IMG/VR virus record: IMGVR_UViG_2925939204_000005
DNA from: a virus
Taxonomy: Duplodnaviria > Heunggongvirae > Uroviricota > Caudoviricetes
Direction: 5' to 3' (one strand)
Length of the DNA stretch: 25,688 nucleotides
Below are positions 4,770-22,671 of the stretch, piece after piece. The first letter of the stretch is position 1; every line of letters starts with the position of its first letter. Under the pieces are notes generated by a model, which made no database searches, was not told the origin of the DNA, and was given only the letters and a program-made list of their open reading frames with translations. A program made the translations under genes and the position numbers.

Positions 4770-4827
4770 AAAAACGGCGGCAGAGCAGTCACGGAGTAAA
4801 ACTGATACCGCCAAACGTCACCAGAAA
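4770..4827 (-). ncRNA. dicF: DicF small regulatory RNA (ftsZ-targeting antisense sRNA)
   Basis: Reverse complement of 4770..4827 reads TTTCTGGTGACGTTTGGCGGTATCAGTTTTACTCCGTGACTGCTCTGCCGCCGTTTTT, matching the remembered DicF sequence including the terminal GC-rich hairpin plus U-run; sits between ydfC and dicB. Confidence 0.85.
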
Positions 4828-8755: not shown

Positions 8756-9655
8756 ATGATTGATCCACTTATTAGAAACTTACAGAGTGATATTGCACTA
8801 CTCCAGCTTTATATCGCGCAACGCAAACAGGCAGGCTTTCATGACATGGAAAGAATAATTGAGTCATTGACCATCTTTATGTTTCGCGCGCTGAAAATGG
8901 GTGAACTGGTAAACATGAATCAGATTAAAGTTAATTTTCCCGCCATTGATTTAGCTGATAATAAAAACATGATAGCAGTTCAAGTTACTACGAATGCAAG
9001 TCCAGCAAAAATTAAAAAAACTATCGAATCTTTTGAGAAAATAAATGAAATAGGAGAGAGTCTGAAAGATAAATACTCTACTTTATATATTTTTGGTTTT
9101 TGTAAAGCCTCAAGATACCTAACTCCAAGTTATTGTAAAATAATCGACCCCAGCTATTTCGTGAATGAACTTTGCGATAAAGCAGATGAAGATATGGTCC
9201 AGGATATGATTGACGCCATTCGACGCCATCATGATTATACATCATTACATCCATGGAGTGATAAAGATTCACTCGAAATTATACTCAATATTATTAATCG
9301 CAATGCAATAAAACATCGGATGAGTTGCGAAGGCAGTCTGTCTGATATGCTCACTGGTTTAAAAGAAATTAATGAAGTAATTACAAAAGGAACAATTCAA
9401 CGTAAGCAACGTTCAAAATCGATATCTGACTTCAAAGATCAAAGCATGGTGAAATTTATGAGAGGTGTAATGGATGATTTGTCTGTTATTCAAGCCATAG
9501 TGAACAAATCTAAAGTTAACCAAGGTGATATGGTTTATATAAGCCATGAAGATATGATTAATATTGATAAATTAAAAGCTAAAATAGCAAGTGATTCATC
9601 AGAGATTGCAAGGCTAAATAATATTGATATAACACTAAATGTTGTTGATTTATAA
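8756..9655 (+). CDS. SMEK-domain-like protein (299 aa), candidate defence/abortive-infection cargo
   Basis: AT-rich gene with AAGGA SD. N-terminal region (NFPAIDLADNKNMIAVQVTTNASPAKIKKTIESF) matches my recollection of the SMEK domain (PAID-LAD ... IA-QVT). C-terminal about 170 aa have no recognised motif. Confidence 0.6.
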   Translation: MIDPLIRNLQSDIALLQLYIAQRKQAGFHDMERIIESLTIFMFRALKMGELVNMNQIKVNFPAIDLADNKNMIAVQVTTNASPAKIKKTIESFEKINEIGESLKDKYSTLYIFGFCKASRYLTPSYCKIIDPSYFVNELCDKADEDMVQDMIDAIRRHHDYTSLHPWSDKDSLEIILNIINRNAIKHRMSCEGSLSDMLTGLKEINEVITKGTIQRKQRSKSISDFKDQSMVKFMRGVMDDLSVIQAIVNKSKVNQGDMVYISHEDMINIDKLKAKIASDSSEIARLNNIDITLNVVDL

Positions 9656-9969
9656 TTGTCGATTTAGCAAAACAGAGAATGCTTTGAAAGTTTCACCGAG
9701 AAATATTTATTGTGAACCTCCTTATTGTTTATCGACTTTTACTCTCCGCTCATTGCAGTACTGTCGGAGAAGGCTACTATGTACAAGAAGCAGCTAACAT
9801 AAGCGAGCATCACTATTGATATTAGGAAGAGTATATAAAAACTTCATGCTGAACCTTACAAAAGTAGGTAAACCGGCAATGGCCTAAGTGGCAGGGTCAT
9901 GTTGATCCGGCAATGCCGAGCTAATAATTAACAAGCAAATCACTCTTTCTAATAATTTGTTGAAATAAA

Positions 9970-10629
9970 CTAAATATGTATATGTTTACCAACAACCACA
10001 TATGAACTACCTGCTTTGCTCCATGATTTTATTATTTCTAAATTATTATCTGAGCATATTTTACTTACAGTATCCACATCTAATAAACCATAGTAGAAAG
10101 CATTACGAGAGTTTTGGTATATATACCCATGCAAATGTTTAATACCGCTCTCGTACCTCTTGAAATAAGAACTTTTGTATTGATTGACAATCAGTGCTTC
10201 ACCATCACTCTTTAATAATTCTCTAATCGCACTGAGGACTTTGTGAATTGTGGATTCACATGGAATTGCGGAAAGCACGTTTGCGCAAAGTATGAAATCA
10301 TAATGATTTGTTATTTTATCTATATTTTCATAAGAAACAATATTAGCATTCTTATAGTTATTTATCACGTAATCTGGAATCGTGGTTTGTACACCTCTGA
10401 TAATTTGCACTCTTTCTAGTTGTCTTCTGGAATCTAAAAATGTCACAGTTTCAAATTTATTTACTAATTGTTCTGAATATCTAAGTTTTCCACATCCAAA
10501 ATCAAGGGCATTGCCATTTTTATTAGTGCTTTCAATCTGTTTACAGAGATAGTTAGATGGCATAGTGTGCGGTTTCGCTGCATTTTCTGAACGTATGTTT
10601 ATTCCATTTATTTTGTAATTCAAAATCAA
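9970..10629 (-). CDS. Class I SAM-dependent methyltransferase (about 217 aa)
   Basis: Motif I LDFGCGKLRY, acidic residue ending beta-2 (VTFLDS) and motif-II-like DFILCANVL. The ORF-track start at 10629 is TTG; a TTG at 10623 with GAGG 6 nt upstream is an alternative. The gene starts 6 nt after the upstream membrane-protein stop, suggesting an operon. Confidence 0.65.
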   Translation of the reverse strand: MILNYKINGINIRSENAAKPHTMPSNYLCKQIESTNKNGNALDFGCGKLRYSEQLVNKFETVTFLDSRRQLERVQIIRGVQTTIPDYVINNYKNANIVSYENIDKITNHYDFILCANVLSAIPCESTIHKVLSAIRELLKSDGEALIVNQYKSSYFKRYESGIKHLHGYIYQNSRNAFYYGLLDVDTVSKICSDNNLEIIKSWSKAGSSYVVVGKHIHI

Positions 10630-10635
10630 CCTCGT

Positions 10636-11331
10636 TTAAAAAATATTGTTATTGTTAAAGAATTCTTTTATTTTGCTATCAGGTATTTGTCTTACTTGGC
10701 TTTCTGTTCTTGGTTTAACTGATGCTATGAAAATAAGGAAGTCAAATGCGACAAGAGAAATAATCCACAACCAAAGATTAATTAAAGAGCCAGTAACAGA
10801 GAATATATTTGTTAATTTGGCGATACTTATTATTAAAATAGTAACAAATGCGATTACTGTATGTTCAAAGAAAACCCAAAAGTAATAAACTTTGTTCCAG
10901 AAAAGTTCAACGTAATGTTTGTCTTTTAACTCTTTAACTTCTGGGTAATACAGTTTACTCATTACCTTGTGAGATTCATCAGTAGTTAATTTTCTCGTAA
11001 CGCCTGCAATTTTTGCTAATGGTTTAATAATTAAATGACTATCCCACATCTTCCTTATTCCAATAATTTTTGCTACATTATTATGTAGATCTAAAGCTCC
11101 ACTAATTACTGACCAAAAAACTGAAGATGCAATTGGTAATATGCCAAAGGTTAATATCCATTTAATAAATTCCTCGTAGTCTTTAACGGGGGGGATATAC
11201 TTGGCATTAATGCCAACCAATGGCATGTAGCCATAAATGACTAATGATAGGTAAAATATAAATGTAGTAATAAAAGTCGCCTTATGGAGCATAGGCAACA
11301 TTTCATTATAACTCTTTGGTGGTTCTAACAT
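10636..11331 (-). CDS. Integral membrane protein (about 231 aa, about 4 predicted TM helices), unknown function
   Basis: ATG at 11331 with GGAG SD (the ORF-track start at 11343 is TTG). Hydrophobic stretches at about residues 20-45, 65-85, 150-180 and 190-215; AT-rich codon usage; first gene of a two-gene operon with the methyltransferase. Confidence 0.6.
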   Translation of the reverse strand: MLEPPKSYNEMLPMLHKATFITTFIFYLSLVIYGYMPLVGINAKYIPPVKDYEEFIKWILTFGILPIASSVFWSVISGALDLHNNVAKIIGIRKMWDSHLIIKPLAKIAGVTRKLTTDESHKVMSKLYYPEVKELKDKHYVELFWNKVYYFWVFFEHTVIAFVTILIISIAKLTNIFSVTGSLINLWLWIISLVAFDFLIFIASVKPRTESQVRQIPDSKIKEFFNNNNIF

Positions 11332-12073
11332 TTTACTCTCCAAACACTCAAAAAAAAGCTAATCTTCTATAATAACGAAATTCAGCTGGCACAATTAAAG
11401 ATTAATTGCCACCAATTTCTTGATTTTATAATTTTATCTAAATGTTTTTGATTAATCTAGTCCTAAAAGAAACCTACTGCATAAATATTTATGCTGATGA
11501 CCCACTCCCTGTTCGTTAACACATAGCAACGTTAGTAATGCATCCTAAGTGATCAATATTTTTGCTAGCTTCATCTGCTCGCTCAAAGGGAACTATAATG
11601 TTGGCTTGCGTGTGACTTGGCATGTTTAAAGAAGTGCTGGTGGTGACTGGTTGCTGTTTTCCATTTCCACAGAACAAAATCATAGAAACTATACCCAGTA
11701 GTTGTATTGAATCACTGACGAGACAGCCTCATATTTATCAGGACTGGTGTACGTCCAATACAGGAGGTTGTGGTGCTGGTTCTCAAATGTGCGCTGGCTA
11801 TTGCTGCTGTAATGGCAATTTATTGTCTTGCTGTTGTTCTTATGGATCACCTTTCTGATTGATTTCATATTGGCGAGGTAACGGTAGTTAAGTAGAATTG
11901 CTGCGGGTGCTTGAGGCTATCTGCCTCGGGCATCAACACCAAAGGCAGATAGAGAAAAGCCCCAGTTAACATTACGCGTCCGGCAAGACGCTTAACATTA
12001 ATCTGAGGCCATATCTATGCTCTACACACGTAGGTTAGCCTCTTACGTGCCGAAAGGCAAGGAGAAGCAGGCT

Positions 12074-12229
12074 ATGAAGCAGCAAAAGGCGATGCTAATC
12101 GCCCTGATCGTCATCTGTTTAACCGTCATAGTGACGGCACTGGTAACGAGGAAAGACCTCTGCGAGGTACGAATCCGAATCGGCCAGACGGAGGTCGCTG
12201 TCTTCACAGCTTACGAACCTGAGGAGTAA
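12074..12229 (+). CDS. hok: Hok-family type I toxin (51 aa; HokD/RelF-like)
   Basis: MKQQKAMLIALIVICLTVIVTALVTRKDLCEVRIRIGQTEVAVFTAYEPEE: single TM helix followed by the conserved Hok periplasmic tail; AAGGAGAAG SD upstream. The ORF-track start at 12017 is an in-frame upstream extension. Confidence 0.85.
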   Translation: MKQQKAMLIALIVICLTVIVTALVTRKDLCEVRIRIGQTEVAVFTAYEPEE

Positions 12230-12298
12230 GAGACCCGGCGAGGGAGAAATCCCTCGCCACCTCTGATGTGGCAGGCATCCTCAACGCACCCGCACTTA

Positions 12299-12329
12299 AC
12301 CCGCTTCGGCGGGTTTTTGTTTTTATTTT
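12299..12329 (+). terminator. Rho-independent terminator downstream of hok
   Basis: AACCCGCTTCGGCGGGTTTTTGTTTTTATTTT: GC-rich hairpin (CCCGC/GCGGG) with a TTCG loop followed by a T-run. Confidence 0.65.
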
Positions 12330-12445
12330 CAACGCGTTTGAAGTTCTGGACGGTGCCGGAATAGAATCAAAAATACTTAAGTAGCGCGCAGGGATAAGAG
12401 GGATGGTCCCTTAAAGGGGAGAGCTAATTATCCGGAAGGATTCTG

Positions 12446-12697
12446 ATGATGAACATCGAAGAACTGCGTAAAATTTTTTGTGAAGATGGCCTCTATGCTG
12501 TGTGCGTTGAAAATGGAAATATTGTTAGTCATTACCGCATTGTGTGTTTGCAAAAAAATGGGGCTGCGTTAATTAATTTTGTGGATGCCCGAGTGACGGA
12601 CGGATTTATCTTGCGCGACGGTGAGTTTGTCACTTCATTACAGGCATTGAAAGAGATCGGAATAAAAGCTGGCTTTTCTGCTTTTTCAGAAGAATAA
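12446..12697 (+). CDS. Small hypothetical protein (83 aa), possibly Rem-like
   Basis: ORF with GGAAGGA SD; the same length (83 aa) and relative position (between hok and the DUF968 gene) as rem in Qin. I cannot confirm the identity from memory. Confidence 0.5.
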   Translation: MMNIEELRKIFCEDGLYAVCVENGNIVSHYRIVCLQKNGAALINFVDARVTDGFILRDGEFVTSLQALKEIGIKAGFSAFSEE

Positions 12698-22090: not shown

Positions 22091-22671
22091 TGGCATTCAG
22101 AATGAGTGAACAAGCACGGACCATAAAAATTTATAATCTGCTGGCCGGAACTAATGAATTTATTGGTGAAGGTGACGCATATATTCCGCCTCATACAGGT
22201 CTGCCAGCAAACAGTACCGATATTGCACCACCAGATATTCCGGCAGGCTTCGTGGCTGTTTTCAACAGTGATGAGGCATCGTGGCATCTCGTTGAAGACC
22301 ATCGGGGTAAAACGGTTTATGACGTGGCTTCCGGCGACGCGTTATTTATTTCTGAACTCGGTCCGTTACCGGAAAATGTTACCTGGTTGTCGCCGGGAGG
22401 GGAATATCAGAAGTGGAACGGCACAGCCTGGGTGAAGGATACGGAAGCAGAAAAACTGTTCCGGATCCGGGAGGCAGAAGAAACAAAAAACAGCCTGATG
22501 CAGGTAGCCAGTGAGCATATTGCGCCACTTCAGGATGCTGTAGATCTGGAAATCGCAACGGAGGAAGAAATCTCGTTGCTGGAAGCCTGGAAGAAGTATC
22601 GGGTGTTGCTGAACCGTGTTAATACAACAACTGCACCGGATATTGAATGGCCAGTAGCACCTATAGGGTAA
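22090..22671 (+). CDS. Tail fibre assembly protein Tfa (193 aa)
   Basis: ATG overlaps the stf stop (TAATG); conserved C-terminal motif [29 protein letters not shown]. Confidence 0.85.

Follow-up and report, generated by a model that had tools for sequence, protein, structure and literature searches.

The window analysed here is the whole 25,688-nucleotide stretch of the IMG/VR virus record IMGVR_UViG_2925939204_000005, a degraded Qin/Rac-like lambdoid prophage of E. coli with the gene order integrase, DicF RNA, cI/cro-like, replication, DUF977, variable cargo, hokD, rem, DUF968, Q, lysozyme, and terminase fragment. The subject is a 29-codon open reading frame (ORF) directly ahead of the hok/sok locus, which reads (M)LVLKCALAIAAVMAIYCLAVVLMDHLSD and ends with TGA at 11860-11862. 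A preliminary description of this DNA had set the hydrophobic ORF against an overlapping 78-aa Cys-rich ORF in another frame, which ends ...GGCGAGSQMCAGYCCCNGNLLSCCCSYGSPF, and the coordinates given for AGGAGG (11762-11767), GTG (11773), the stop codon (11860-11862), and the 78-aa ATG ORF (11622-11858) are exact. A direct read confirms that no Shine-Dalgarno sequence precedes the ATG of the 78-aa ORF. The small ORF is also, as described, divergent from the membrane-protein and methyltransferase genes (10636-11343 and 9970-10629, both on the minus strand). The segment 11400-11900 is 100% identical in E. coli 55989 and about 140 other complete genomes, and carries no RefSeq annotation there. The features of the small ORF and its surroundings are as follows.

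11773..11862, plus strand: 29-codon small ORF with its TGA, from comparative evidence and the Prokaryotic Genome Annotation Pipeline (PGAP) call WP_000960667.1 in strain D6
11762..11767, plus strand: Shine-Dalgarno sequence AGGAGG, by direct read, 5 nt ahead of GTG 11773
11707..11735, plus strand: predicted sigma-70 promoter of the small ORF, from a phylogenetic footprint
11750..11755, plus strand: TACGTC box in the predicted 5' untranslated region, 36/42 identity across diverged lineages
11576..11706, plus strand: leader segment that accompanies the small ORF in most loci, from the clustering of homology left ends
11622..11858, plus strand: 78-aa Cys-rich ORF, judged not a gene, from haplotype comparison and the ratio of non-synonymous to synonymous substitution rates (dN/dS)

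Conservation of the reading frame

Copies of the locus have been gathered by BLAST against complete E. coli genomes, phages, and plasmids, by a degenerate DNA pattern inside the ORF, and by a pattern with its anchor in the promoter and 5' end of hok, the last as a guard against ascertainment bias. The resulting comparison set holds more than 100 related prophage loci and the Shigella virulence plasmid pINV. The pattern used in the first collection scan was degenerate at third codon positions, which biases codon periodicity within 11818-11846, and the periodicity test has been redone outside these columns.

The 29-aa ORF is intact in all 48 unique full-length haplotypes and also in about 130 loci. 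Nucleotide diversity at codon positions 1, 2, and 3 is 0.033, 0.012, and 0.083 (63 haplotypes), the third-position value being equal to that of the non-coding leader (0.081). Outside the search-pattern columns the corresponding values are 0.026, 0.013, and 0.099, with a permutation p of 0.023. The pINV copy is 78% identical to the window, keeps the length and the AGGAGG, and starts with ATG. The two copies differ in the 29-aa frame by 9 synonymous and 8 non-synonymous, mostly conservative, changes (dN/dS 0.22, Fisher p=0.005 for the synonymous excess), and comparison of the window with a more diverged homologue in E. coli O157:H7 Sakai (class B, below) gives a dN/dS of 0.40 at a dS of ~0.9.

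The 78-aa frame behaves differently. Its ATG is present in 1 of the 48 haplotypes, that of the window, and is mostly GTA elsewhere. The frame is broken in many haplotypes by 1-nt and 13-15-nt indels and by stops, and its dN/dS against pINV is 2.25 (1.8-3.0). In a seven-way alignment, DEC5A has 2 bp inserted past the Shine-Dalgarno sequence, ahead of the start codon; this leaves the 29-aa ORF unharmed and throws the 78-aa frame out of register. Phage HannyBb and BL21 are homologous to the window only from ~25 nt ahead of the Shine-Dalgarno sequence onwards, and nothing in them corresponds to the N-terminal half of the 78-aa ORF. A 59-aa ORF on the minus strand is intact in only 23 of the 48 haplotypes.

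Because ORF integrity, dN/dS, and codon-position diversity agree, the hydrophobic frame that begins at GTG 11773 behind AGGAGG is the conserved coding frame and the Cys-rich frame is its out-of-frame shadow, as the preliminary description had suspected. It had also proposed asking which frame is conserved among relatives, and had named synonymous-site conservation that supports neither frame among the outcomes that would speak against a gene. The related loci favour the 29-aa frame, with its excess of synonymous changes, over the 78-aa frame. Its view that either reading would be an unannotated small protein holds in part: it applies to the 29-aa frame alone, and RefSeq indeed has no annotation in nearly all genomes, but the peptide has already been deposited as "membrane protein" or "hypothetical protein" (APK03751.1, WP_000960667.1, and ACT39199.1 of REL606). 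A 29-codon ORF by itself is not above chance expectation. The integrity of this one, its conserved Shine-Dalgarno sequence and start, its codon-periodic variation, and a dN/dS below 1 make it more than chance, and we consider it highly probable that the small ORF is a real, translated gene for a small membrane protein.

Translation start and predicted topology

GTG codons lie at both 11770 and 11773, and an ORF taken from the first would span 11770..11862 and encode 30 aa. The upstream GTG is replaced by GTC, GCC, ATC, or TAT in most haplotypes, including that of strain D6, and position 11773 is GTG or ATG in all lineages. The Shine-Dalgarno sequence is identical to that of the window at 36/42 positions across seven lineages with diverged upstream sequences. 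Since the first GTG is missing from strain D6 and from the majority of haplotypes, conservation shows the start to be GTG 11773, served by the AGGAGG 5 nt upstream, and the product to have 29 residues.

The best 19-residue hydropathy window of the peptide scores 2.70 and covers residues 6-24. One transmembrane helix (residues 6-24) followed by a short acidic C-terminal tail is predicted, in line with the single helix with a short polar tail of the preliminary description. For the window allele, the charge bias between K5 and the pair D25 and D29 weakly suggests an N-in/C-out topology.

Translation of a homologue

The class-B homologue of O157:H7 Sakai is the translated intergenic ORF XECs145 of Hücker et al. 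2017 (PMC5597208), and its translation is good in uninduced cultures. In lysogeny broth (LB), XECs145 has 79 reads per kilobase per million mapped reads (RPKM) in RNA and 346 RPKM in ribosome profiling (Ribo-seq), a ribosomal coverage value of 4.35, and an ORF coverage of 0.99 (PMC5597208 S2 Table). By comparison, the short annotated genes in LB have a mean ribosomal coverage value of 1.55 (PMC5597208). In the brain heart infusion (BHI) control the values are 121.3 RPKM in RNA, 150.1 RPKM in Ribo-seq, a coverage value of 1.14, and an ORF coverage of 0.84; under cold, salt, and acid stress they are 73.3 RPKM, 1.1 RPKM, 0.01, and 0.37, respectively (PMC5597208 S2 Table). The cutoff of at least 30 aa in that study would exclude the 29-aa class (PMC5597208). 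XECs145 is now ECs_5710 in RefSeq and lies in prophage Sp6, ~190 nt upstream of mok/hok and directly after a class-C ORF.

Family and distribution

In the hok-anchored loci, the slot directly upstream of the prophage hok is filled by class A (the window type), class B, class C, or cargo genes. Class B is the diverged homologue MSDDISLAMEGALAVVAVVGVYCLVVFLMDRLGN, of 34 aa, with AGGAGG and an ATG start. Classes A and B share 50% identity over 28 residues (E=4e-9) and are bridged by intermediates such as P0079 and P0075. Residues L3, A8, L9, A10, V14, Y18, C19, L20, and L24 are invariant across both classes (30-residue numbering of alignment A4; subtracting one gives the position in the 29-residue peptide), and R27, which is R26 in the 29-residue peptide, is nearly invariant. 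Class C is a 27-aa hydrophobic ORF, MTWPEAFTTVGIAMAVALVVYSICRWG or MIWPEAFAITGVAIAIDFLVYVICRWG, with no similarity to A or B by eye, no formal comparison having been made. Its ATG overlaps the stop of a DUF551-type gene. Class C has been seen in Sakai Sp6 (L225:2345-2428), L141, L154, L158, and others; in Sakai it stands in tandem with class B, and the Shigella form is a fusion with the DUF551 protein (121 aa).

In the cargo type, all of the small ORF is replaced except its last 20-27 nt. This terminal piece (window 11840-11869) is always kept at the hok promoter when cargo replaces the ORF (L135, L170, L216, and others); it is AT-rich and may be an UP-like element of the hok promoter or the mark of a recombination hot spot. 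Class-B loci (L138, L149, L152, and L225:2575-2596) have a perfect palindrome, CGATATGGGAATTCCCATATCG, between the small ORF and the hok promoter, which is missing from the window. Since there is no T-run on either side, the palindrome looks more like a protein-binding site than a terminator.

In Pfam, NCBIfam, PHROGs, and PADLOC, none of the 29-aa, class-B, class-C, and 78-aa sequences has a match that rises above noise, and a sequence search of the PDB has given no matches at E<=10. A match to the KdpF model below cutoff (E=0.024) belongs to the class-C peptide. A truncated Hok duplicate has been considered because of the shared "I/Y-C-L" and rejected, as PF01848 is not matched. With a concatenated A+B query, a word-indexed search of 5.8 billion proteins has returned only hypothetical proteins of E. 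coli and E. albertii, and an exhaustive profile hidden Markov model search of 1.84 billion representatives has returned 26 matches, all obvious family members. A scan of one genome per species has given matches only in E. albertii, E. ruysiae, Shigella, an enterobacterial metagenome-assembled genome (MAG), and a few uninspected MAG contigs of unrelated taxa. Apart from this MAG and the uninspected contigs, the protein, profile, and species scans have found no relatives outside Escherichia and Shigella. A tblastn search of the class-B peptide against the phage collection gave no match, probably because of the low-complexity filter, and in a DNA search of class B against the same collection only the downstream palindrome was matched.

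At a coverage of at least 80%, 1895 of 5426 complete E. coli genomes (~35%) carry the small ORF, among them the E. coli B strains BL21(DE3) and REL606. The pINV-type copy (<80% identity) is present in 135 of 144 matching plasmid records from Shigella and E. coli, including enteroinvasive E. coli (EIEC). This relic lies ~250-480 bp upstream of the start codon of icsP (sopA), at L005:2488-2800 (EIEC RMDEC364) and, for example, at NC_004851.1 219821-220048. It contains part of the leader, the intact small ORF with ATG, the hok promoter, and the first ~50 nt of the hok mRNA, all at 78% identity; in S. flexneri M90T the pINV copy is the Prokka call CP037924_00134. The small ORF is missing from K-12, in which relBE lies upstream of hokD against a truncated hok leader. 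In Qin of K-12 MG1655 (L224, 1645000-1647000), relE ends 71 nt before the hokD start codon and most of the hok leader is gone. The absence from K-12 may be the reason why the gene has escaped K-12-centred small-protein surveys. The peptide strings and accessions have been found in no paper searched, and the supplements of the "Cryptic Bacterial Microproteome" contain no match for the peptide. The family is of a familiar kind, a small single-pass membrane protein as prophage cargo; one of its members had been flagged by Ribo-seq before, and several have been deposited as hypothetical proteins.

Promoter, leader, and RNA signals

The predicted promoter consists of a -35 element TTGAAT (11707-11712), a 17-nt spacer, and a -10 element CATATT (11730-11735), with an inferred transcription start site (TSS) at ~11742. 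The upstream sequences of 13 lineages, otherwise poorly alignable, share TTG(AAT), a variable spacer of 17 nt, and CATATT. The seven lineages that have diverged most match the window at 42/42 positions of the -10 element, 31/42 of the -35 element, 60/119 of the spacer, and 36/42 of the TACGTC box. This footprint suggests that 11707-11735 is a weak sigma-70 promoter belonging to the small ORF, with a start near 11742. The TACGTC box can pair weakly with the Shine-Dalgarno sequence and forms a small hairpin with GGAGG in the predicted fold; BL21-type homology starts just ahead of this box.

On the left, the homology of 71 loci begins in a cluster at 11575; further left ends fall at ~11700, ~11730, and ~11840, and ~11575 is the commonest recombination junction with variable cargo genes. 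The far leader (11576-11700) varies at a neutral rate and is under no strong constraint, since its diversity equals that of the third codon positions of the ORF.

The preliminary description had likened the peptide to type I toxins and small membrane proteins and had proposed a search for an antisense RNA promoter and terminator on the opposite strand. A consensus scan, which can miss weak signals, finds neither a sigma-70-like promoter nor an intrinsic terminator on the minus strand of 11300-12450. Rfam has no family for the small ORF region (11575-11900), even at E<=5, apart from chance-level matches. The fold z-scores against dinucleotide shuffles are +0.21 (11600-11905) and -0.38 (11740-11905), so the RNA is not unusually stable; only a 5-bp hairpin reaches the Shine-Dalgarno sequence, and the repeats have arms of only 11-12 nt, which is chance level. 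No match to Hok/Gef (PF01848) or to other type I toxin profiles of Pfam and NCBIfam has been found at E<=10 with the class A, class B, or pINV peptides.

An 11-nt segment at 11721-11731 (AGACAGCCTCA) is complementary, with one mismatch, to the 5' tac region of the hok mRNA at 11912-11922, and perfectly so to the D6 hok allele. This complementarity is probably due to chance, and would matter if a read-through transcript exists.

The hok/sok locus and the cargo region

The neighbours of the small ORF are listed below.

11870..11898, plus strand: hokD promoter TTGGCG-17-TAGAAT, a neighbour and not part of the small gene, from a promoter scan
11905..12315, plus strand: hok/sok locus, given as context, from Rfam RF01794 (114 bits) and the RefSeq annotation of the identical 55989 locus
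11905-12079, plus strand: hok mRNA leader with the Sok target, from Rfam RF01794, with its 5' end at 11905
12017-12229, plus strand: mok, from the ORF list
12075-12229, plus strand: hokD, from the ORF list
12298-12315, plus strand: terminator of the hok/sok locus, from a terminator scan
10636-11343, minus strand: membrane-protein gene (235 aa, multi-pass, no family), divergent from the small ORF
9970-10629, minus strand: class I S-adenosylmethionine (SAM) methyltransferase gene, divergent from the small ORF, with a weak PADLOC mad2 match

The product of hokD matches HOK_GEF. The hokD promoter begins 8 nt past the stop of the small ORF, and the window has no terminator in between. The ORF lies immediately upstream of hok in at least 84 of 108 loci by a strict regular expression, and in more by eye. 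Conversely, 81 of 189 hok-anchored loci, as well as K-12, have hok without the small ORF; the 189 loci combine those of the hok-anchored scan with those of the ORF-anchored one. In at least 13 loci, one of them on the S. flexneri chromosome, the leader and the ORF are followed by a convergent DUF1971/YeaR-like gene with no hok, and homology stops at the stop codon. On pINV, only the first ~50 nt of the adjoining hok mRNA remain, yet the small ORF is intact. The small ORF is thus an autonomous unit, found with hok, without hok, or beside a truncated hok.

The slot between DUF977 and the small ORF (8756-11343) holds three cargo genes in the window, which encode a SMEK-domain protein, the methyltransferase, and the membrane protein. 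The SMEK-domain protein matches PF21941 and also the PADLOC Aga_REase-PNTD model (E=1.4e-20). Related prophages have different genes in the same slot, for example that of a DUF4145 protein, and, by eye only, a SIR2-like cluster and a QueH-type gene. Because its contents differ so widely among related prophages, the slot appears to be a cargo or defence hot spot with its right boundary at ~11575.

Elsewhere in the window, Rfam matches above gathering score are the DicF sRNA at 4775-4826 (minus strand, 72.5 bits) and the IS009 RNA at 22433-22631 (plus strand, 229 bits). Downstream of Q, in the segment 14645-17178, there is an IS1 transposase along with a 2-thiouracil desulfurase/DUF1722 gene and a minus-strand gene for a Blc-like lipocalin, and the terminase fragment adjoins tail-fibre genes. 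These genes and the junction of the terminase fragment with the tail-fibre genes indicate a decayed, cryptic element.

Interpretation

That the locus really encodes the 78-aa Cys-rich protein (11622-11858) is next to impossible. Its ORF is longer than any other ATG ORF there, and public databases contain versions of it, 71-98 aa long, as hypothetical proteins, but comparison has already refuted this reading: the ATG is private to the window haplotype, the frame breaks, the N-terminal half is missing in BL21, HannyBb, and other lineages, dN/dS is 1.8-3.0, and there is no Shine-Dalgarno sequence. It is also very improbable that there is no functional gene at all, the ORF being open only because the DNA has had little time to diverge or is kept by another constraint, such as one on sequences upstream of the hok promoter, and the coding signature being chance in 90 nt. 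The segment is short and most copies are more than 90% identical, which lowers the power of the tests; periodicity outside the search pattern reaches only p=0.023; the RefSeq pipeline usually makes no call; and the TSS map of pWR100 in S. flexneri M90T (PMC7132871 Table S3) has no start near the pINV copy on either strand. However, the ORF, Shine-Dalgarno sequence, and start have outlasted divergences of 22% (pINV) and 36% (class B) with synonymous changes in excess, while the adjoining non-coding leader and the other two frames decay across the same divergence. There are several independent upstream junctions, yet the right boundary is fixed at the stop codon, and the class-B homologue has Ribo-seq support.

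A type I toxin, or a toxin- or holin-like killer, would depolarise the inner membrane and make up a second killer beside hok, normally kept silent by the structure of its mRNA or by an antisense or divergent small RNA that has escaped detection. We regard this as unlikely. The peptide is indeed small (29 aa, within the <60 aa of hydrophobic, membrane-targeted type I toxins), and its size, hydrophobicity, and single helix resemble Ibs, TisB, ShoB, and the N-terminal classes of Hok; it adjoins a bona fide type I system, its GTG start and the TACGTC/GGAGG hairpin could damp translation, and the absence of a TSS for the pINV copy in M90T would fit tight silencing. The consensus scans, Rfam, and the repeats give no sign of a small-RNA antitoxin, an absence of evidence since weak signals can escape such scans, and the mRNA folds no more stably than its shuffles. 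No toxin model is matched, the conservation is motif-specific and not merely hydrophobic, and the homologue ranks with the better-translated small ORFs of Sakai during exponential growth (4.35), which is unexpected for a lethal peptide. For these reasons a non-toxic modulator is preferred over a type I toxin. Slightly less likely still is an accessory of hok, that is, an upstream ORF or unit that tunes the hok promoter or mRNA, or a peptide that modulates Hok as an immunity factor or potentiator. The stop 8 nt from the hok -35 element with no terminator between, the many copies directly upstream of hok, the use of this slot by two small transmembrane ORF families (A/B and class C), even in tandem in Sakai Sp6, and the terminal 20-27 nt that remain after a cargo swap would all fit such a role. 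A leader peptide would be expected to be obligately linked to hok, and the loci do not show this; hok has its own complete promoter, which separates the two, and complete Sok/mok control. The autonomy of the small ORF in both directions therefore disfavours a leader-peptide or upstream-ORF role. Purifying selection at the amino-acid level is also unexpected for a purely regulatory upstream ORF, and Hok is almost invariant, so that no co-variation backs an interaction. A broader proposal, that small transmembrane peptides (A/B together with class C, MTWPEAF.../MIWPEAF...) form a systematic third layer of prophage hok loci as Hok partners (immunity or potentiator) or as combinatorial phage-exclusion effectors, is a long shot. 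If it were true, the intact copy beside icsP on every Shigella virulence plasmid would have been co-opted there.

On balance, we lean with moderate confidence towards a genuine gene for a 29-residue single-pass inner-membrane protein that acts as a non-lethal modulator and is carried as prophage cargo. The gene would be cargo at the right edge of the variable region of Rac/Qin-type lambdoid prophages, directly ahead of hok/sok. Its transcription would most likely start from its own weak sigma-70 promoter at ~11742, with read-through from the early-right operon adding to it during lytic growth, and since there is no terminator before hok in the window, the transcript probably continues through the hok promoter. 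The peptide would insert as one transmembrane helix, perhaps N-in/C-out on the charge evidence, and may bind a larger host or phage membrane protein without lethal effect. Binding could involve the helix face and juxtamembrane LMD(R/H)L motif of the conserved A-L-A...V...Y-C-L...L(M)(D/E)(R/H)L pattern. Superinfection exclusion or the modulation of a transporter or receptor would be examples of such a role, as distinct from a pore-forming killer.

Several observations weigh against this proposal. The Ribo-seq support comes from a homologue that is 50% identical, not from the window allele, and XECs145 as published is 60 nt longer than it should be and shares sequence with the end of another small ORF. 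The M90T TSS map, as mentioned above, has no start at the pINV copy. The promoter matches the consensus at only 4/6 and 4/6 positions, below the threshold of the consensus scan, and the BL21-type allele, which directly follows a DUF977 gene of the same orientation, has no such promoter. The topology is ambiguous, as the N-terminus of the class-B homologue is acidic and has no K5. We infer the step of non-toxic binding to a partner, and the peptide may be toxic at a higher dose.

Significance and comparison with known systems

The gene is present in ~35% of complete E. coli genomes and is almost never called by the reference pipeline, so that adding it would correct thousands of annotations. 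It would give small-protein research a conserved, probably expressed, phage-borne membrane peptide that is native in BL21(DE3). It also marks the right boundary of a cargo-swapping hot spot with candidate defence genes and adjoins a classic killer module, a position that gives it a possible bearing on phage exclusion or on prophage-host membrane physiology. The system is not new in kind, and its mechanism is offered as a proposal.

The closest known relative is XECs145/ECs_5710 of Sakai Sp6, a homologous peptide at a corresponding place upstream of mok/hok in a lambdoid prophage, with a single transmembrane helix and the Y-C-L...L-M-D-R-L motif, and translated in vivo (PMC5597208). It differs in its length (34 aa), in its ATG start, in the acidic extension MSDDISLAME at its N-terminus, in being preceded by co-directional genes and another small transmembrane ORF and not by a footprinted promoter of its own, and in the downstream palindrome CGATATGGGAATTCCCATATCG. 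The E. coli type I toxins (Hok/Gef, Ibs, Ldr, TisB, ShoB, DinQ, and ZorO) are likewise small hydrophobic peptides, and the window ORF adjoins one such system; unlike them, it has no family match, antitoxin RNA signals, or structured mRNA, and its homologue is translated in normal growth. MgrB, MgtS, AcrZ, KdpF, and PmrR are small bacterial proteins that span the membrane once and regulate larger membrane proteins. Like them, the window peptide does not exceed 50 aa, has a single hydrophobic helix whose ends are short and polar, and shows residue-specific conservation, and its homologue is expressed in growing cells, whereas there is no sequence relation and the window gene is phage-borne and limited to Escherichia and Shigella.

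HK97 gp15 is a prophage small protein that acts on host membrane proteins for exclusion. DicB of Qin is another such protein (PMC6832061). DicB is a soluble protein of 62 aa, gp15 is larger, and neither is homologous to the 29-aa peptide. Like them, the window gene is a small cargo-type gene of a lambdoid or cryptic prophage that is plausibly expressed in the lysogen, and the window also carries the DicF RNA of the dicBF type.

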